A stretch of 64,000 bases of DNA from Arcobacteraceae bacterium (GTDB lineage: Bacteria; Campylobacterota; Campylobacteria; Campylobacterales; Arcobacteraceae): contig JALNYH010000002.1 in NCBI GenBank assembly GCA_023229945.1, positions 21,548 through 85,547 on the forward strand. Direction: 5' to 3'. Below are positions 45,283 to 62,715 of the stretch, in pieces. The position numbers were made by a program, and so were the translations under genes. Position 1 is the first letter of the stretch, and every line of letters starts with the position of its first letter. A model generated the notes under the pieces. The model did no database searches, was not told the origin of the DNA, and saw only the letters and a program-made list of their open reading frames with translations.

Positions 45283-45897
45283 TTATGACAATATCTCTTC
45301 GATAGTGATATAATCCCCTACTCTTCCAGTCATTTGCTCTACATCAGTATTTACTGGTAGTGTTTTTTTACCTGGTCTCCAACCTGCTGGGCATACTTCA
45401 CCCGTAGCAGTTGCATGTTGCCATGCTCTTACTTGTCTTAAAAATTCATTTACATTTCTTCCAACAGAGTCCGCTTGTACTTCTTGAGCTACACAAACAC
45501 CGTTTGGATTGAACAAAAATCTTCCTCTAAGTGCAACACCCTCTTCTTCGATAAGTACACCAAAAGACTCTGCAACTGATTTAGTTGTATCAGCTCCAAT
45601 TGTAAGTTTCAAACCTTTTAAAATAGGCTCAGTTTCTACAAATCTTTTGTGAGAAAATTTTGTGTCTGTTGAAATAGGTAATATCTCAACTCCTAGTTCT
45701 TGAAACTCATCATATTTAGCATTCATAGCCGCAATCTCTGTTGGGCAAACAAATGTAAAATCCGCTGGATAAAAACAAACTACTGTCCATTTACCTACAT
45801 AATCTTCACTTGATACTGTTGTATAGTGACCAGTTGCTGCATTATATGCACTCATTTTAAATTCTGGCATTTTTCTTAGAACCATTGTTGAACTCAT
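45283..45897 (-). CDS. ahpC: 2-Cys peroxiredoxin (AhpC/TsaA family)
   Basis: Start moved to MSSTMVLRKMPEF (ATG 45897, AAGGA RBS). FYPADFTFVCPTE peroxidatic Cys and GEVCPAGW resolving Cys. Confidence 0.88.
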   Translation of the reverse strand: MSSTMVLRKMPEFKMSAYNAATGHYTTVSSEDYVGKWTVVCFYPADFTFVCPTEIAAMNAKYDEFQELGVEILPISTDTKFSHKRFVETEPILKGLKLTIGADTTKSVAESFGVLIEEEGVALRGRFLFNPNGVCVAQEVQADSVGRNVNEFLRQVRAWQHATATGEVCPAGWRPGKKTLPVNTDVEQMTGRVGDYITIEEILS

Positions 45898-46144
45898 TTT
45901 CTTTTCCTTTGTTATTTCTGTTTTATTATTTTCGACGATTTCTTTTTTTTCGTCTCTAGCTTTTATTCCTGCATCGCAAGCCATTTTATCTCCTTTTTCA
46001 AAATATTGTTTTTGAATGAAAGAATTATATCAGAGTAAAATAAAATCTATTATTGGATAAAAATTATCGTTTAGTTTTTTAAGAATAATTTAAGTTATAT
46101 AATTGGATTATATTAGCATCATAAGTTTATATTATGATTTTAAG

Positions 46145-46855
46145 TTAAAAGTTTCTATATTCTATTTTAAATTTATCTGTATGCAATTTCTTTAGGTCAA
46201 TATAAGATAGTTTTTTTGTTAGATTACCAAAGTTTTCTTTGGATTCAAGGAAGTTTTGTAGATAATAAGTACCATTGTAATCTATATTTTCAAGAGTTTT
46301 TATCATCATTTGTATATCATAAGTATCCAATAAATCTGGATGAATTGTAGAGCGTATCTCAAAGTTAACACCACTTTTTACGAGCATGATTACTGAATTG
46401 ATAAAAAACTCAAAATATTTTGATGGGTTTTTTGTCACAAGTTCAAATTTATCTTTTGGTGCTTTGAAATCAACCGCCACAAAATCCAAAAGACCCATAT
46501 CCAAAAGCTCTTGCAAACTTTCATGATGCACACCATTTGTATCAAGTTTTACCATAAATCCCATATTTTTGACTTTTACAATAAAACTAAGCATTGCATT
46601 ATCATAGCCAAATAAAGGCTCTCCACCACAAAGAACTACCCCTTGAAGTAGCCCTTTGCGAGTCTCTAAAAACTCAAGAACCTCATCATAGCTATAATTT
46701 CCACTTCCAGTTACAATCTCAGTATTATAACAATACCCACACCTCATCCCACATCCACATATCCATACAATACATGCTACATGTGATGGAAAGTCCAGCA
46801 ATGTAAATGGCGTAATATTATAAACTTGCTTCTTTTTGACAATATGTTTGTTCAT
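46145..46855 (-). CDS. nrdG: anaerobic ribonucleotide reductase activase NrdG (radical SAM)
   Basis: Start moved to MNKHIVKKK (ATG 46855). CGCGMRCGYCYN cluster motif. Confidence 0.8.
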   Translation of the reverse strand: MNKHIVKKKQVYNITPFTLLDFPSHVACIVWICGCGMRCGYCYNTEIVTGSGNYSYDEVLEFLETRKGLLQGVVLCGGEPLFGYDNAMLSFIVKVKNMGFMVKLDTNGVHHESLQELLDMGLLDFVAVDFKAPKDKFELVTKNPSKYFEFFINSVIMLVKSGVNFEIRSTIHPDLLDTYDIQMMIKTLENIDYNGTYYLQNFLESKENFGNLTKKLSYIDLKKLHTDKFKIEYRNF

Positions 46856-46997
46856 GAAAATATGTTCTTTGTCTATGCTCACCAATTTTTCCTATATTAA
46901 AGCTTTCCACTGGTCTATGATACCCCATAACTCTAGTATAAACCATACATTTCGTTCTTTTTTCTTTGTTTTGCTCTAAAACTTCATTTTTACTCAT
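46818..46997 (-). CDS. stand-alone NrdD glycyl-radical domain (59 aa)
   Basis: Hand-translated MSKNEVLEQNKEKRTKCMVYTRVMGYHRPVESFNIGKIGEHRQRTYFHEQTYCQKEASL. It carries the class III RNR C-terminal pattern (V)Y(S/T)R(V)xGY..PV..(W/F)N.GK..E...R. AAGGAG sits 6 nt upstream. Same frame as nrdD. Confidence 0.65.
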   Translation of the reverse strand: MSKNEVLEQNKEKRTKCMVYTRVMGYHRPVESFNIGKIGEHRQRTYFHEQTYCQKEASL

Positions 46998-47012
46998 TTT
47001 TTACTCCTTTTC

Positions 47013-47136
47013 TTTAGTTTTTAGTTTGTAGAGGGTAGAGAAGATAATGAAGAAATAATTTTCCGTTACCACCTACCACCTACCACCTACCACCTACCAC
47101 CTACCACCTACCACCTACCACCTACCACCTACCACC
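47013..47136. repeat. heptad-repeat hairpin element, copy 1: conserved 54-nt core + (TACCACC)x10
   Basis: tttagtttttagtttgtagagggtagagaagataatgaagaaataattttccg, then ten exact TACCACC units (47067..47136). Homologous to 60822..60931. Confidence 0.85.
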
Positions 47137-49217
47137 TAAGCACCTAAAATCTCCTCATCACACTTCGGACAATACTCATGCTCACCACTTATATACCCAT
47201 GCACTGGACACACACTAAAAAGTGGAGTGATAGTCACATAAGGAAGTCTGAAATTTGTAATAACAGATTTCAAAAACTCCCTACAGCTATCACCACTTTC
47301 TAGTTTTTCATTCATATAAAGGTGAAGTACAGTTCCCCCTGTATATTTGCACTGCAAATCATCTTGATGAAGAAGTGCAGCAAATGGATCAGCAGAAAAA
47401 TCCACTTGAAGTTGAGATGAGTTGGTATAATATATATTTTCCCCCATTCCAGCTTGCAAAATATCTGGATATCTTTTGATATCTTCTTTTGCAAAACGAT
47501 AAGTAGTTCCTTCAGCTGGTGTTGCTTCAAGATTATACAAGTTTCCAGTTTGTTCTTGATAGCTAGTCATTAGCTCTCGTATAAAGTCCAAAATCTCCAA
47601 AGAGAGTTGTTTCCCAAATTCACTAGCAATATCATGCTTATCACTTGTAAAATTTCTCACCATTTCATTAAGCCCATTTACTCCAATAGTAGAGAAGTGA
47701 TTATTGAAGTTTTTTAGATACCTTTTCGTATATGGATAAAGTCCTCTATCAAACATTGTATTGACAAAAACTCTTTTCTTTTCCAAAGTCTCTTGAGCAA
47801 TATCGCAAAGTTCCTTGACTCTTAGCAACAGCTTCTTTTTATCCCCACTATAAAGATACCCAAGTCTTGCCATATTAAGTGTCACCACACCAATACTTCC
47901 AGTCATCTCAGCACTCCCAAAAAGCCCACCACCTCGCTTTAGAAGCTCTCTCAAATCAAGCTGAAGCCTACAACACATACTTCTTACATGACCTGGTTTA
48001 TAAGCATTTGGATTTTCACAAAGATTTCCAAATTCATCTTTTGTATATTGACTACCTATAAAGTTTTGGAAATAACTAGAACCTATTTTTGCACTATTTT
48101 CAAACAACACATCAGTATTTTCACCATACCAATCAAAATCTTCTGTGATATTTACCGTAGGAATCGGGAAAGTAAAAGGTTGTCCATTTTGGTCACCTTC
48201 TGTCATCACCTCATAATATGCTTTATTGATTAGATTCATCTCTTTTTGAAAATATTTATAAGTCATATCACTTAGATTTGATACCCCTCTAGCTCTTGCT
48301 TCTTCAATCAAATCATCATCGCTCACACCACTTAATAAATGTCTTTGATTTTTAGTAGGAATTTGGTCTTTTAGGTCACTTGGTACAGTCCAATCAATTG
48401 TCACATTTGTAAAAGGACTCTGACCCCAACGAGCAGGAACATTTAGATTATAAATAAAACTCCGAACTGCCTTTTTGACATCATTATATTCAAGCTTATC
48501 TTTGAAAACATAAGGAGCTAGATATGTATCAAAAGAGCTAAAAGCCTGAGCTCCAGCCCATTCACTTTGAAGTATCCCCAAAAAGTTTGCCATCTGACCA
48601 AGAGCCTCCCTAAAATGGCTCGGAGCTGAGCTTTCAACCCTACCTCTTATACCATTGAACCCCTCATCAAGAAGCACTCTCAAACTCCACCCAGCACAAT
48701 ATCCTGTTAGACAATCAAGGTCATGTATATGAATATCCCCATTTCTATGGGCGTATCCTTGAGTTTTGGTGTATATTTTATCAAGCCAATAGTTTGCTAT
48801 TAGTTTTCCAGCTAGATTATTGACAAGCCCAGCATTAGAATATCCAGTATTTGCATTGGCATTTATTCTCCAATCAGATTTGTTTATATATTCTTCTATA
48901 GAGCTTGTAGAGTTTACATAAGTAGTATCTTCATTAAGCCCCAAGATATGTTCTCTTTGCATCTTATGCAAGAATCTATATGTGATAAAAGATTTTGCCA
49001 CATCAAAATATTTAGCTTCAAAAAGTCTTTTTTCGATTGTATCTTGTATCTCTTCTACAGTTTGAAGATTGTTTTTTTCAATATCACCCATAACTTGTTT
49101 GAATATTTGTCCATCATATCTTGATATCACACTATCAAATGCCTTTTTTATAGCATCTTCTATCTTGAAAGCACGAAATTCTTCTTTACTTCCATCTCTT
49201 TTAAATATAAATTGCAT
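47136..49217 (-). CDS. nrdD: anaerobic ribonucleoside-triphosphate reductase NrdD, large fragment lacking the glycyl-radical domain
   Basis: Start at MQFIFKRDG (ATG 49217, GAGGG RBS). ATP-cone, class III RNR core, ends just after the Zn-ribbon CPVHGYISGEHEYCPKC. The stop TAG is formed at the edge of the heptad repeat. Confidence 0.85.
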   Translation of the reverse strand: MQFIFKRDGSKEEFRAFKIEDAIKKAFDSVISRYDGQIFKQVMGDIEKNNLQTVEEIQDTIEKRLFEAKYFDVAKSFITYRFLHKMQREHILGLNEDTTYVNSTSSIEEYINKSDWRINANANTGYSNAGLVNNLAGKLIANYWLDKIYTKTQGYAHRNGDIHIHDLDCLTGYCAGWSLRVLLDEGFNGIRGRVESSAPSHFREALGQMANFLGILQSEWAGAQAFSSFDTYLAPYVFKDKLEYNDVKKAVRSFIYNLNVPARWGQSPFTNVTIDWTVPSDLKDQIPTKNQRHLLSGVSDDDLIEEARARGVSNLSDMTYKYFQKEMNLINKAYYEVMTEGDQNGQPFTFPIPTVNITEDFDWYGENTDVLFENSAKIGSSYFQNFIGSQYTKDEFGNLCENPNAYKPGHVRSMCCRLQLDLRELLKRGGGLFGSAEMTGSIGVVTLNMARLGYLYSGDKKKLLLRVKELCDIAQETLEKKRVFVNTMFDRGLYPYTKRYLKNFNNHFSTIGVNGLNEMVRNFTSDKHDIASEFGKQLSLEILDFIRELMTSYQEQTGNLYNLEATPAEGTTYRFAKEDIKRYPDILQAGMGENIYYTNSSQLQVDFSADPFAALLHQDDLQCKYTGGTVLHLYMNEKLESGDSCREFLKSVITNFRLPYVTITPLFSVCPVHGYISGEHEYCPKCDEEILGA

Positions 49218-49295: not shown

Positions 49296-49317
49296 AGCCC
49301 AAGCTTAAACTTGGGCT
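49296..49317 (-). terminator. intrinsic terminator of the TsdA-like gene
   Basis: agcccaag / cttgggct 8-bp stem, 6-nt loop, followed on the minus strand by CTTTTGATTT. Confidence 0.65.
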
Positions 49318-49327
49318 ATAGAGAAGA

Positions 49328-50314
49328 TTAATTTTTTATAATATTGCCATATGGACCGAATTTATGAGTAGTTTCACTCTCTTTATCCATATATGGTCCT
49401 TTTGGTACATCAGCAGCTTTTACCCTTACATCAGAAAAATCAGAACTTCTATTGATTTTTTCTGGTCTATAATGAGAATCCAGATTCATAAATGCAGCCA
49501 CATCATAAGCCTCAGCATCTGTTAAAATTGGATGTTCATTTGTAGCACCTAAAGGCATATTGCTTTTTATAAAATCAGCTGCTTTTAAAAGTCTAAACAT
49601 TCCAGCACCTCTATTATAGCTATCTTCTCCCCAAAGTGGTGGATACATATATCCATTTGCAAGTCCTTCATTTTTTATACCCTCACCATTAGCACCATGA
49701 CAAGCCACGCAATGCACTTCATACACTTTTTCACCTGCTTTTGGGTCAGCTGCTCTTTGTTTTACCATTTTTCTATCAATTTTAGCCAAACCTCTACCTT
49801 CCATCTTAGCACCACCTACAGGAACTCCTTGGCTTAACCAATGAATATAAGCTTCAAATGCTTTCATCTCTTTAGAGTTTGGTGGTAGTGGATAGCCATT
49901 CATACTTCTTTGCATACATCCATTTACTCTTTCACTAAGAGTTCCTATAGTATCTTCTCTTGGTCTATATTGTGGAAATTCTGCTGCAGTACCAACAAAA
50001 GGTGCTGAATAAGCTTTTGTTCCAGCATCAAGGTGACAACTTTGACATGAAAGATTATTCCCTGCAAATCTCATTTTAGGATCTTCAACTTCAGGTCCAA
50101 TATATTTAAATGTATTTACAGTTAGCTCTTTACCATATTTTACCAAATCACCATATTGGTTGTTTGGAATAGTGCTTTCATCTGGTATTTTGTACTCCAT
50201 TGTAGGTTTTTTAATACCTTTGTCACTTCTTTTTGCAAGTTCTTTTAAATCTATTGCAAAAAGTGTTGTCACACACACAGCAGCTGCAGTTGATAGTAAT
50301 ATTACTTTTTTCAT
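49328..50314 (-). CDS. di-heme cytochrome c, TsdA-like (thiosulfate dehydrogenase / tetrathionate reductase family)
   Basis: 328 aa. Signal peptide, CQSCH and CVACH, RVNGCMQRSMNG...EMKAFEAYIHWLS pattern. Confidence 0.6.
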   Translation of the reverse strand: MKKVILLSTAAAVCVTTLFAIDLKELAKRSDKGIKKPTMEYKIPDESTIPNNQYGDLVKYGKELTVNTFKYIGPEVEDPKMRFAGNNLSCQSCHLDAGTKAYSAPFVGTAAEFPQYRPREDTIGTLSERVNGCMQRSMNGYPLPPNSKEMKAFEAYIHWLSQGVPVGGAKMEGRGLAKIDRKMVKQRAADPKAGEKVYEVHCVACHGANGEGIKNEGLANGYMYPPLWGEDSYNRGAGMFRLLKAADFIKSNMPLGATNEHPILTDAEAYDVAAFMNLDSHYRPEKINRSSDFSDVRVKAADVPKGPYMDKESETTHKFGPYGNIIKN

Positions 50315-58753: not shown

Positions 58754-60826
58754 ATGAGATATAATAATACAAATTTTTTACAAAAAGATAGGGGATATTT
58801 AGTGTTAAATTCATTGACGGTAAAAGGTAAGTTACAAGTTGTAACTGCGTTGGTAGTTTTAGGTTTTGTGCTAATTGCATTGTTTAGTTATATAAGACTT
58901 AGTGCTCTAGATAAAGAATATAAAGATACAGTGGTAATAAGTGAAATAAAACAGCTTGTTAGTAATACTTTAATAAGTAATATAGAAGGGGCTTCAGCTA
59001 TTAGAATGATGATTTTAGCTCCAAATGATACACAAGCTCCGAAAACATTAGAAACAAATGTAGCTTCTGTTGAAGAAGCTATAAAAACTTTACAATCACC
59101 AAAGTATGCTAAAGCATCACAAGGGTTTACTAAGTTTAATATTGGTGAGTTACATACAAATTATGCAAATGTACTTCAATCAATTTTAATAAAAAGAGCA
59201 AAAGGTGAAGAAATTACTCCTGAAGATAATAAAAAAGTTGCAAAAAATCTTCGTCCTTACAAAGCAGCCCTAAATGAATGGTTAAAAGCAAATGATACAA
59301 AACAAATATCTCTTAGTGGTAAATTTGAAACTACAATAGCTTCTACTATTACTATATCTATTTTAATATCTTTGGTTATTATAATCTCAATATTTGTGAT
59401 TATATTGTTGATTGGCGGAAGTATAGTGAATTCTCTTCATACATTTAGTAATGGTTTAAAAGATTTCTTCAACTACTTAAATAAAACAACCAAAACAATA
59501 CAACTAATTCATATTGATGGTAAGGATGAGTTTAGTGTGATGGCTGATATGACAAATACAAATATCAAACATATTGAATCTCAAATCATAGAAGATGATA
59601 TGTTTGTATCTGATGTTAATAGATTTGCGAAAGAAATAGCTTCTGGAAATATGCTAGCAAAAATAGAAAAAAACACATCAACTCAAAACTTAGCAGAACT
59701 AAAAGAAATTCTTACTCAAATGCAAAAAAATTTAGAACATTCTATAGCAAGAAGTATCCCTATGCTTATAGAAATATTAGAAAGTTATACAAAACAAGAT
59801 TTTACAAAAAAATTCCCAGATGCTTATGGTAAAGTAGCCCTTAGTGTAAATTCTCTTGGTGAAAATATGTCAAAACTTCTTATGCAAAACTTACAAGATG
59901 GTATGGCACTAGATTATAGTACTGATGTTTTACTAGAAAATGTAGATGTACTAAGTCGTAGTGCAAACTCAGCTGCTGCATCTTTAGAAGAAACTGCTGC
60001 TGCATTAGAAGAAATCACAGCTACAGTTGTAAGTAATTCAAACAATGTAGCCCAAATGTCACAGTATTCAAATCAAGTAAGTAATTCAGCAAAAAAAGGA
60101 CAAGAGCAAGCTAGAAATACAACAACTGCTATGGATGAGATTACGGCTCAAGTAGCATTGATAAATGAAGCAATCACAGTAATAGACCAAATTGCATTCC
60201 AAACAAATATTCTATCCTTAAACGCTGCGGTTGAAGCTGCAACTGCTGGTGAGGCTGGAAAAGGATTTGCAGTAGTTGCTGCTGAAGTGCGAAATCTAGC
60301 ATCAAGAAGTGCTGAAGCTGCAAAAGAAATCAAAAACATAGTTGCAAATGCAACAAATAAAGCAAATGAAGGTAAATCTATAAGTAATGATATGATAAAA
60401 GGTTATGATGAGCTTTTAGGTAATATCAATAAAACTACAGCCGTTATTGCTGAAATTGCAAATGCTTCAAATGAACAACAAGCTGGTATCACCCAAATCA
60501 ATGATGCCGTAACAGGACTAGATCGTCAAACTCAAGAAAATGCGTCAATTGCATCACTTGTAAGAGAGATAGCAAGCGAAGCTGACCAATTATCAAAAAG
60601 AATGGTTGTTGATGCTTCTAGTAAAGAATTTTTTGGTAAAAACGAATTTCTAAAAGAATCAAAAAACAAAATCCCAACAAAAAATACACAAACAGTAGCT
60701 GTGAATAAATCAGTAGCAAAACCTCAAATAAAACATACCCATAATGAGAGCGTTAAACCTAAAACTCCACTAAAAACAATAACCCCAACCAAATCATCAA
60801 AAGATGACGAATGGGAGTCATTTTAG
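58754..60826 (+). CDS. methyl-accepting chemotaxis protein (helical-bundle sensor) with a C-terminal xWxxF tail
   Basis: 690 aa (start uncertain; GTG at LVLNS is possible). TM-sensor-TM-HAMP-MA. The signalling hairpin is nearly identical to the MCP at 39873. Ends DDEWESF. Confidence 0.85.
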
Positions 60827-60931
60827 TTTTTAGTTTGTAGGTGGTAGGTGGTAGAGGGTAGAGAAGATAACGAAGAAATAATTTTCCGCTACCACCTACC
60901 ACCTACCACCTACCACCTACCACCTACCACC
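60822..60931. repeat. heptad-repeat hairpin element, copy 2: core with (GTGGTAG)x2 left arm and (TACCACC)x6 right arm
   Basis: Same core as 47013..47066 (two substitutions) plus 14 extra nt in the left arm. The arms form a perfect long hairpin. Fills the entire MCP-dnaX spacer. Confidence 0.85.
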
Positions 60932-62715
60932 TACACTCTACTCTTAACAATAATCTTAGTTGGAGCAAATAGTTCTTTTGCAGTATTTACAAAACTTGAG
61001 TTTAAAATATCATTTACTTCAAGCTCTTTAGAAGCTGGTTTGGGATTGCTCGTTTGTGTCATATCTGCTACACATCCACTACCAAAAGATTCTTCTTCTA
61101 TCATAGAAGAGATATTTTCGCTATCCTCACTACACTCTTGAGGAACATTATCTACTTTTTTTTTTAGCTCTTCTTCGGTAGGTTTATAAAATTCTATTAT
61201 AGTATCATTTCCAAAACACTCTTCTACTACAGTTCTAATATAAGCAAAGTTTTTCCACAAAAGTTTTTTATCATCACCATCAGCAATACTCCAAATATTG
61301 AGTATTTTTGTCATATTATCAAAACTTTTGAATATAAAATTCTTCTCCAAACAAGTACCAAGTTCATAGCTTCTTTCAGATACTTTACTTATTACCAATT
61401 CATAAATATTAGTTTGAGGCTCTATTATTGGCTCTTCTTGGATTTGTTCTAATTGTGGCATTTCTTCCATATTTTCATGTTGGCTCATATTCATATCAAA
61501 ACTTTGAGCTTGTTCTATCTCTTCTTGTATAGGATGTTGCTGTTGAGCTACATCTATAGTAGTTGTTTTTGCTTGAGATATTGTTGGAGTAGTTGGAATT
61601 GGAGTTGGAGTTGAAGAAAGCTCATCTTGGGCTTTTGCTATCATATCACAAGTAGTTTTTTCAAGCTCATTTATAAGTGCATCAATAGTTTTTAGTTTTG
61701 TAGCTTCTACCATCTTAGAAACCATCAAAATAAGTACAAAATCACTATCACTATTAAGGGCTAGTAAATGTTTGCTATCTCCCAAAATCCTAAACATCCT
61801 ATCTATCAAAATAGTATTAAATTTATTGTTTTTGCTAAGCAATTGATTTTTGAGATATATCGCCATCTCATCTATTATCAAATCTGTTTCATAATCTTGC
61901 AATATATTTGAAATATCCAAAACCGTAGCATTTTTGAGTATCATATCAAATATATTATCCATCAAAGTAGGATCAATAAGTCCCAACATATCAGTAACAC
62001 AGCTAGTTGTGATATGCCCTTTTGAGTAAATAATAGCTTGGTCAAGCAATGTCAAAGTATCTCTCAAAGACCCATGCCCACTTCTTGCTATTAGCTCTAT
62101 CGCTTTTGGCTCATAATTTATATGTTCTATATTCAAAATATGTTCTATATGGTGAATTATATCTTTTAGTGCAATAGCTTTGAATCTAAAGTGTTGTGTA
62201 CGGCTCAGTATTGTAGCTGGTAGTTTCAAAGGATCAGTAGTAGCTAATATAAATTTTACAAAAGGTGGCGGCTCTTCTAGAGTTTTAAGAAGTGCATTAA
62301 ATGCTTGAGTTGTAAGCATATGTACCTCATCTATGATAAATACTTTGTATCTACCGCTTGATGGTTGGTATTTTGTATGCTCTATCAAATCTTTGATATC
62401 TTCAATACCACGATTACTAGCTGCATCCATCTCCACAACATCAAGATGTCTTCCACTATTAGAACTAAGACAATTTTGACACACTTCACAAGGTTTTGAA
62501 GTAGGACCTTGCTCACAAAGGAGTGACTTAGCCATAATCCGTGCAGTACTAGTCTTTCCACTTCCTCTAAGTCCACTGAAAAGATAAGCATGAGGCAATC
62601 TTTTCATATCAAGAGCCAAAGATAAAGTTTGAGAAACAGTTTGTTGTCCAACTAAATCTTCAAACCTTCTTGGTCGGTATTTAAGTGCTAATACTTTATC
62701 ACTACTATTCATCAA
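60931..62715 (-). CDS. dnaX: DNA polymerase III subunit tau/gamma DnaX
   Basis: 594 aa. GLRGSGKTS Walker A, IIDEVHML, clamp-loader domains. Confidence 0.9.
   Translation of the reverse strand: MMNSSDKVLALKYRPRRFEDLVGQQTVSQTLSLALDMKRLPHAYLFSGLRGSGKTSTARIMAKSLLCEQGPTSKPCEVCQNCLSSNSGRHLDVVEMDAASNRGIEDIKDLIEHTKYQPSSGRYKVFIIDEVHMLTTQAFNALLKTLEEPPPFVKFILATTDPLKLPATILSRTQHFRFKAIALKDIIHHIEHILNIEHINYEPKAIELIARSGHGSLRDTLTLLDQAIIYSKGHITTSCVTDMLGLIDPTLMDNIFDMILKNATVLDISNILQDYETDLIIDEMAIYLKNQLLSKNNKFNTILIDRMFRILGDSKHLLALNSDSDFVLILMVSKMVEATKLKTIDALINELEKTTCDMIAKAQDELSSTPTPIPTTPTISQAKTTTIDVAQQQHPIQEEIEQAQSFDMNMSQHENMEEMPQLEQIQEEPIIEPQTNIYELVISKVSERSYELGTCLEKNFIFKSFDNMTKILNIWSIADGDDKKLLWKNFAYIRTVVEECFGNDTIIEFYKPTEEELKKKVDNVPQECSEDSENISSMIEEESFGSGCVADMTQTSNPKPASKELEVNDILNSSFVNTAKELFAPTKIIVKSRV

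Follow-up and report, generated by a model that had tools for sequence, protein, structure and literature searches.

The 64,000-nucleotide stretch of DNA analysed here (the window), which comes from a contig of an Arcobacteraceae bacterium, carries on its minus strand a gene for the large subunit of a class III ribonucleotide reductase (RNR), nrdD-L, followed by the gene for a short glycyl-radical peptide, nrdD-S, and by nrdG, which encodes a radical-SAM activase. Our comparison with related loci makes it highly probable that this locus encodes a natively two-polypeptide class III (anaerobic) RNR and that nrdD-L, nrdD-S and nrdG form a conserved module. On the same comparative grounds, the split of the reductase is an old and conserved design, and it was not caused by the repeat element that lies between the two nrdD genes.

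The large gene (49217..47136, minus strand) encodes 693 amino acids with an ATP-cone and a Pfam NRDD domain, the latter matched with an E-value of 2.7e-157 over profile positions 2-529 of 562. Membership in class III NrdD was judged by the curated cut-offs of PF13597, TIGR02487 and NF006126. The protein scores 400 bits against TIGR02487 (cut-off 326) and 1066 bits against the NCBIfam profile NF006126 (cut-off 548), of which it covers positions 3-650 of 684. The active-site cysteine loop MCCR comprises residues 414-417 (for the cysteine-loop motif classes of RNRs, including the M/S-x-C-R type of finger loop, see PMC9669993). A zinc ribbon is predicted at residues 670-686, with CPVH at 670 and CPKC at 683, i.e. 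with a histidine instead of the second cysteine. These four ligands (C, H, C, C) are invariant across the split and fused members of the clade; the entire NF006126 clade has this C-x2-H...C-x2-C ribbon and not the four-cysteine type.

The chain then ends with ...CPVHGYISGEHEYCPKCDEEILGA*, seven residues after the CPKC of the ribbon, so that the early end noticed in the original prediction was correct, with one residue more than the six that had been counted. This post-ribbon tail is the shortest among 84 split homologues, in which it ranges from 7 to 36 residues. A glycyl-radical motif overlooked in the large open reading frame (ORF) would have removed the basis for a split gene; a motif search of the 693-aa ORF found no RVxGY. 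Among the 120 nearest nrdD-L homologues listed, which are 74–89% identical, lengths of 694–754 aa likewise fit an end just past the zinc ribbon, and the three that were read all end at this point. The longest one (P0343, 754 aa) was considered as a candidate for a longer NrdD form and rejected, its length being due to a miscalled N-terminus.

The glycyl-radical segment is encoded by nrdD-S, a separate ORF of 59 codons at 46997..46818 on the minus strand, just where it had been predicted to lie together with its AAGGAG ribosome-binding site. This Shine-Dalgarno sequence can be read directly at 47009..47004 (minus strand), 6 nt before the ATG. The peptide begins with MSKNEVLEQNKEKRTKCMVYTRVMGYHRPVESFNIGKIGEHRQR... 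and reads in full MSKNEVLEQNKEKRTKCMVYTRVMGYHRPVESFNIGKIGEHRQRTYFHEQTYCQKEASL; its radical motif is RVMGY, in which the glycine is residue 25. A match of the 59-aa translation to the C-terminal part of the NrdD profiles is indeed found and is restricted to this part, covering only positions 532-562 of the 562 of Pfam NRDD (E-value 5.7e-6) and only positions 649-683 of the 684 of NF006126. Both ORFs together thus satisfy the full NrdD profile, and the RVxGY motif is not on the polypeptide that forms the barrel.

Stand-alone homologues of nrdD-S are numerous. They form 1792 clusters at 90% identity, the best 120 of which have lengths of 49–81 aa, and the matches listed come from Arcobacter, Aliarcobacter, Campylobacter, Sulfurovum, Flavobacterium, Parapedobacter, Balneolaceae and others. 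A HMMER scan of 1.84 billion representatives at 50% identity gave 1002 matches with E <= 0.001; the best 150 of these are 43–145 aa long, all of them stand-alone sizes. In a motif scan with one genome per species the nrdD-S motif was present in at least 600 species genomes. Comparison of 25 diverse sequences from three phyla revealed 23 invariant positions (RTKC.VYTRVMGYHRPVESFNIGK.GEH.QR). One of them is a cysteine at residue 17, which precedes the glycine by 8 residues; fused relatives with a long linker have this cysteine too, those with a short linker do not. It might play a part in metal binding or in tethering of the peptide. In the databases the small ORFs are labelled either 'anaerobic ribonucleoside-triphosphate reductase' or 'hypothetical'.

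To locate the break, the last 120 residues of nrdD-L were joined to nrdD-S and used as a query. Two kinds of matches were obtained, namely split large subunits (64–79% identical, query coverage about 66–79%) and fused proteins (54–62% identical, coverage 89–98%), the latter from Geobacteraceae, Asticcacaulis, Rickettsiales and other Pseudomonadota. When split and fused sequences are aligned, the four ribbon ligands (C, H, C, C) and the TRVMGY.RP of the glycine loop are invariant and the intervening segment is hypervariable; in 36 fused matches the glycine follows the final cysteine of the ribbon at a distance of 11 to 42 residues. Fused forms with a long linker (...CDDAILREKPQGTPLLDEEREPCENWTRVMGY) resemble the two window ends when these are simply joined (...CDEEILGA + MSKNEVLEQNKEKRTKCMVYTRVMGY). 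Nothing is thus missing or duplicated at the junction, which answers what an alignment with intact NrdD had been proposed to clarify, and the break is situated in a hypervariable linker for which any length is tolerable.

The single-chain NrdD proteins of the NF006126 (PRK08270) type are the closest known counterpart. One profile spans both window pieces, and both systems have the ATP-cone, the MCCR loop, the C-x2-H...C-x2-C ribbon, a glycine loop reading TRVMGYHRPV and, downstream, an activase of the NrdG2 type. The difference is that in the single-chain proteins a variable linker joins the ribbon to the glycine loop, whereas in the window a stop, a spacer and a start are found within this linker.

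The conservation of the split was followed in 85 related loci, consisting of 80 loci listed from the species motif scan, Arcobacter sp. FWKO B and four contigs of close relatives. The hosts belong to the Campylobacterota and Bacteroidota, with one metagenome-assembled genome (MAG) from the PVC group. Usable upstream sequence was available for 79 of the 85, and in all 79 the large ORF stops soon after C..HGY..GE...C..C and a separate ORF of 49–64 aa carries the glycine loop, with the exception of one locus (L020) that is discussed below. The proposal that relatives be inspected for the same split is thereby answered in the affirmative. In addition, tblastn placed nrdG immediately behind the small ORF in all 84 loci with enough sequence for scoring, mostly with an overlap of 11–38 nt. 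The start codon of the small gene is itself conserved in the relatives, and in the Campylobacterota an AGGAG-type Shine-Dalgarno sequence is found at the same place. The split is also present in Arcobacter sp. FWKO B, where the spacer measures 58 nt and contains no repeats and the gene order (sensor kinase, TsdA-like cytochrome c, nrdD, small ORF, nrdG) matches that of the window.

In a neighbour-joining tree calculated from the 112 residues that finish with the ribbon, a rough tree without bootstrap, the 85 split sequences form one clade and 35 fused sequences are paraphyletic. The sequences are therefore consistent with a split that arose once and then spread across the Campylobacterota and Bacteroidota.

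In the window, nrdG (46855..46145, minus strand) encodes 236 amino acids with Radical_SAM/Fer4_12 matches and belongs to TIGR02495 NrdG2 (E-value 3.8e-54, 183 bits against a cut-off of 131). Its start overlaps the end of nrdD-S by 38 nt. A consensus scan found no terminator-like site between nrdD-L and nrdD-S; the terminator-like hairpin of the upstream cytochrome-c gene (49296..49317, minus strand), which is a pattern match only in that scan, probably marks the 5' limit of a transcription unit comprising nrdD-L, nrdD-S and nrdG.

Both parts of the split reductase are under selection. Compared with Arcobacter sp. FWKO B, dN and dS are 0.051 and 0.606 for the small gene, 0.068 and 0.916 for the large gene and 0.299 and 1.099 for nrdG; compared with the closest metagenomic relative, the small gene shows a dN of 0.031 and a dS of 0.164. 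Over the full aligned length this corresponds to a dN/dS of 0.08 (FWKO B) and 0.19 (closest sample) for the small gene, or approximately 0.06–0.09 over its first 50 codons, and to 0.07 for the large gene. Judged from these substitution rates, nrdD-L and nrdD-S are under strong purifying selection, with values of working genes and not of decaying fragments.

These values also bear on the idea that an intact nrdD was recently cut by insertion of the heptad-repeat element described below and that the locus is now decaying. It is true that the element supplies the stop codon of the large gene, that the tail behind the ribbon is the shortest one seen, and that the element is not confined to this site, another copy lying at 60.8 kb of the window. 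However, a recent pseudogenisation is refuted not only by a dN/dS of 0.07–0.19 in both genes but also by the repeat-free split in FWKO B and in other usable loci, many of them from lineages in which the two genes overlap, by the conserved start codon, Shine-Dalgarno sequence and nrdG overlap, and by the fact that the split forms one old clade, and we give this explanation next to no credence. By comparison, a two-piece enzyme with a free radical-bearing peptide, which the original prediction had listed as one of three possibilities, appears well supported by the conserved split, the linkage to nrdG, the purifying selection and the start signals.

The spacer itself had been described as 141 nt between the nrdD stop and the ATG that preserve the reading frame over 47 codons and contain five in-frame stops. 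The frame is indeed preserved; the 141 nt include the stop codon of nrdD, leaving 138 nt between this stop and the nrdD-S ATG, and the five in-frame stops (four TAG and one TAA) include the TAG of nrdD-L. All three frames of the spacer are closed, and the TAA adjoins the ribosome-binding site of nrdD-S. Among the relatives the large and the small gene overlap by up to 35 nt or lie up to 310 nt apart, and every residue modulo 3 is represented. Overlaps of the 35-nt type in the +1 frame are common in the Bacteroidota, and a 4-nt ATGA overlap is found in Sulfurospirillum and some Sulfurimonas. Because the spacers of the relatives range from -35 to +310 in any frame, the in-frame 141 nt of the window are a coincidence.

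Most of this spacer is occupied by the repeat element. A perfect heptad array, (TAGGTGG)x10.3 in the sense of the gene strand, extends over 47067..47138 (minus strand; Tandem Repeats Finder, period 7, 10.3 copies, 100% matches), and the TAG stop of nrdD-L lies within its first unit. The remainder of the element (47013..47066, minus strand, approximately 55 nt) consists of a core of about 41 nt and degenerate heptads (CTCTACC CTCTACA AACTAAA AACTAAA) and aligns with the second copy at 60821..60934 on the plus strand. A probe of two heptad units gave 15 matches where 0.01 were expected by chance. Within the 64 kb the heptad element occupies two loci, and its unit is unlike the published heptamers. 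The two copies have the same orientation and share TTTAGTTTTTAGTTTGTAG, the 41-nt core with two differences and a (TACCACC)n arm. Both arms are present in the second copy, which reads (GTAGGTG)x2.6, core, (CTACCAC)x6.6 with the two arms inverted and forms a hairpin of -50 kcal/mol (z -6.9). The nrdD copy is without the short inverted arm, and the RNA of the whole nrdD spacer is no more structured than its shuffles (z -0.12; z +0.93 in the closest relative).

That the element is an addition to this site can be seen from the nearest relatives. A metagenomic contig (L083) encodes an NrdD-L that is 99.3% identical to that of the window, with DNA identities of 95–100% per 100-nt segment of the large gene and of about 92–98% in the stretch of nrdD-S and nrdG. 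Right behind ...DEEIL, exactly where the window array begins, this contig has an array of another kind, (GGTTAAG/GTGTTAA)n, and then repeats of the ACCAAT type. Such alternative arrays (L083:2873-2985, L084:36-125 and L086:857-945) correspond to positions 47013-47144 of the window and have about 5–9 units, the number varying among three different samples. Read from these alignments, the whole spacer cassette has been swapped inside flanks of 95–100% identity, and the heptad element is very young at the nrdD locus, a fast-changing intergenic passenger that occupies a pre-existing gap between two genes. It is thus, by the same comparison, incidental: it neither caused the split nor regulates it via frame changes. 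The original statement that nrdD is split across a repeat element turns cause and effect around: the gap was there before the element entered it.

The gap between nrdD-L and nrdD-S is evidently a tolerant landing site for repeats. Flavobacterium spacers (L005, L007, L015, L004, L006 and L003) contain other palindromic or short-repeat elements, among them a long spacer palindrome (AACCGCAAGGTTCGCAAGG...CCTTGCGAACCTTGCGGTT) and opposed arrays (GTTTAGAAG.../...CTTCTAAAC and GGTTTAA.../...TTAAACC) just upstream of the start of the small gene. When metagenomes were scanned, the window element's 32-nt core gave 0 matches. A scan for four TAGGTGG units gave at least 120 stretches, and the 80 loci among the matches listed are unrelated and uninformative, with a G+C content of 37–75% compared with 31% for the window. 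Using ViennaRNA with G-quadruplexes, (UAGGUGG)10 is predicted to form four tandem two-layer quadruplexes (-58.1 versus -29.8 kcal/mol). No G-quadruplexes are predicted by the same program for the arrays of the relatives, and for this reason the predicted quadruplex is given little weight.

Tandem 7-nt repeats of this kind have a published counterpart in the TAACTGA heptamers of Beggiatoaceae, Cyanobacteria and Bacteroidetes (PMC4679880), which like the arrays described here are intergenic, lie near start codons and vary in copy number. In contrast to these, the units are TAGGTGG in the window and GGTTAAG in its relatives, and the window arrays are part of a palindromic element with a unique core.

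It has also been proposed that expression of an intact enzyme depends on a change in repeat number or on excision of the element, and a fused NrdD could in principle also be produced conditionally if ribosomes shifted frame, read through the stop codon or bypassed the 141 nt in translation. In favour of such mechanisms, the window spacer is a multiple of three and the number of heptads varies between near-identical samples. However, the TAG inside the 7-nt unit closes all three frames, so that a change in repeat number cannot fuse the genes, and stops would be present in every frame at any copy number, to which the TAA by the ribosome-binding site has to be added. The locus accordingly does not behave as a phase-variable gene in which the copy number switches the frame ON or OFF, although the copy number does vary between samples. 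For this locus, control by repeat number or excision is therefore refuted. Neither is the frame of the spacer conserved in the relatives, which need no fused product, whereas the independent start signal is; nor does the spacer RNA show any special structure. In the Bacteroidota (L018, L021, L042, L047, L053 and others) the small ORF usually starts 17–35 nt before the large stop, in the +1 frame and inside an A-rich run, where a slip of one base would join both ORFs, and L020 reads as a fusion. Taken together, a conditionally fused NrdD of whatever kind appears very unlikely. An apparently fused frame in the PVC-group MAG (L016) was rejected as a chance open frame in high-GC DNA, the true layout being a 4-nt overlap.

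Tandem repeats are error-prone in assemblies, and the interruption could accordingly be an artefact of assembly or sequencing at the repeat. As the same structure is found in independent isolate genomes, MAGs and metagenomes obtained with different technologies, and the element's other copy in the window shares its core, the probability of this is negligible.

For a structural view of the two chains, nrdD-L and nrdD-S were artificially concatenated and modelled with AlphaFold2 using an alignment of 87 rows (pLDDT 74.9, pTM 0.72). The model places the glycine, number 718 in the joined chain, at the tip of a beta-hairpin with strands at 711-716 and 719-722. In a Foldseek search the top matches were all class III RNRs, with TM scores of 0.5–0.74 and 17–20% identity, so that at the level of the model the class III RNR fold of the two chains joined is confirmed. 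The characterised NrdD structures of phage T4 (1H79), Thermotoga maritima (4U3E/4COI), Prevotella copri (8P2S) and Streptococcus thermophilus (9DCA) show the same fold with the glycine at the tip of the C-terminal hairpin; these are single chains, whereas the window enzyme would consist of two. With the C-terminal 179 residues as a phmmer query, no PDB sequence was matched at E <= 0.01.

The assembly of the chains, the activation of the peptide by NrdG and the enzymatic activity are what we infer from these data. In single-chain NrdD, the glycine in the C-terminal loop loses a hydrogen to NrdG; for this activation the loop must exit the barrel, and it must return to pass the radical to the active-site cysteine. 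In the split enzyme, NrdD-L would provide the ATP-cone, the catalytic barrel with the MCCR loop and the zinc ribbon, and the gene break lies in the hypervariable linker that leads from this ribbon to the glycine loop. NrdD-S would be translated from its own ribosome-binding site and carry the glycine that NrdG turns into a glycyl radical; it would be made together with NrdG, stoichiometrically coupled via the gene overlap. NrdG may activate NrdD-S either free or loosely bound, after which the beta-hairpin of NrdD-S would enter the barrel of NrdD-L and, just as happens within a single chain, the active-site cysteine would receive the radical. The glycyl-radical domain of P. copri NrdD has been described as a highly mobile, roughly rigid unit (PMC11226230).

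Several points speak against this interpretation. The production of the peptide, its activation by NrdG and its binding to NrdD-L are deduced by comparison with other systems. The region of the cysteine loop (residues 409-440) has a pLDDT below 50 in the fusion model, and since its chains were joined artificially, the model cannot show a non-covalent assembly. In L020, a long-read MAG, the two ORFs read as a fusion (YENKTNEVLE); a second frameshift upstream, typical of homopolymer errors in long reads, makes a sequencing error likelier than programmed frameshifting, and an occasional fusion by frameshifting may occur at the Bacteroidota overlaps. Finally, the survey covered loci, and a complete single-chain NrdD may be encoded elsewhere in genomes that carry the split.

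The last point leads to another explanation, in which nrdD-S would be a spare part or regulator for a complete glycyl-radical enzyme encoded elsewhere, comparable to GrcA (YfiD), and NrdD-L alone would be inactive or otherwise employed. According to a passage in PMC12288474, which cites Andorfer 2021 and Kammel & Sawers 2022, free GrcA can replace the oxygen-cleaved part of pyruvate formate-lyase, the known precedent for such a piece acting in trans. Like GrcA, which docks into a large catalytic partner, nrdD-S is a small free-standing protein with a radical glycine, and a second nrdD outside the surveyed loci would fit this idea. However, GrcA is homologous to the C-terminus of pyruvate formate-lyase and nrdD-S to NrdD; in a Pfam search of nrdD-S, NRDD was the sole match and no Gly_radical domain of the pyruvate formate-lyase type was found. 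In addition, GrcA backs up an enzyme that has a glycine of its own, whereas the partner of nrdD-S is without this glycine in the 79 usable loci and the peptide is always encoded between NrdD-L and nrdG, in the operon and next to the activase. As NrdD-L has no glycine, NrdD-S would be obligatory. NrdD-L is moreover strongly conserved and retains all other catalytic features, and a spare-part role therefore seems improbable. The comparison with GrcA made in the original prediction holds as a possible mode of working and fails as a statement on family membership.

To our knowledge, every characterised glycyl-radical enzyme, including NrdD, has its radical glycine on the catalytic chain, and GrcA, a repair part, is the only free-standing radical piece known. 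Divided RNR genes exist in other classes. In phage Aeh1 the class I 'genes-in-pieces' NrdA is split by a homing-endonuclease gene, whereas no mobile gene is present in the window gap. The split class II NrdJa/NrdJb resembles the window locus in that the catalytic subunit is encoded by two adjacent genes and requires their joint assembly (PMC9669993); the RNR class and the break point are different, and the piece detached here is a radical-bearing element of approximately 55 aa. Recent family-wide analyses of RNRs mention NrdJa/NrdJb and, for class III, place the glycyl-radical domain at the C-terminus (PMC9669993, PMC9531940). We found no description of a split NrdD in the open-access literature (7.7 million papers) and bioRxiv, most subscription journals being outside this search.

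The neighbourhood of the operon provides some further observations. The TsdA-like cytochrome-c gene upstream of nrdD (window 49326-50016) is only 60–80% identical to its counterpart in L083 (positions 1-690), whereas the nrdD promoter and gene beside it are 94–100% identical. This sharp mosaic boundary between the cytochrome-c gene and nrdD suggests that the nrdD operon has recently recombined or been transferred within the Arcobacteraceae. On the other side, genes related to oxidative stress are found beside the operon. In the window, a 233-aa ORF (45283-45984, minus strand) is, by eye, a candidate AhpC/peroxiredoxin-like protein, and precomputed Pfam matches show a catalase and an ankyrin-repeat protein downstream of nrdG in two relatives (L001 and L084). 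Such neighbours would fit an oxygen-sensitive enzyme, which is suggestive, and coincidence is also possible. The second copy of the repeat element lies between the convergent ORFs 58754..60826 (plus strand) and 60931..62715 (minus strand) and may, going by its predicted folding, represent a bidirectional terminator or a REP-like element. A 690-aa ORF beside it ends with ...DDEWESF, presumably akin to the C-terminal pentapeptide of chemoreceptors.

Oxygen destroys the glycyl radical and cleaves the chain at the glycine. Tentatively, the split may thus be an adaptation that makes the radical-bearing part of class III RNR a cheap and exchangeable 'fuse', a proposal that we consider possible but less likely than not. 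Oxygen damage would then cost only the peptide of approximately 55 aa, and a fresh peptide, co-translated with NrdG and activated off the enzyme, would reload the intact 693-aa subunit. If so, this would be the first glycyl-radical enzyme that natively stores its radical on a separate subunit, in parallel to the separate radical-generating subunit of class I RNR.

Because the small gene is easily missed or called 'hypothetical', the large gene looks truncated, and annotation pipelines and RNR surveys may misjudge such genomes. If the two-polypeptide enzyme is real, class III RNR would be able to work as a hetero-oligomer, and the split form would offer a natural system for studying the encounter between the activase and the glycine loop and the entry of this loop into the barrel. 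The bacteria concerned (Arcobacteraceae, Sulfurimonas, Campylobacter concisus and Flavobacterium) are mostly microaerophilic or aerobic-facultative and live at oxic-anoxic interfaces, and the split would provide a testable idea on how oxygen-exposed bacteria keep an oxygen-sensitive enzyme usable.

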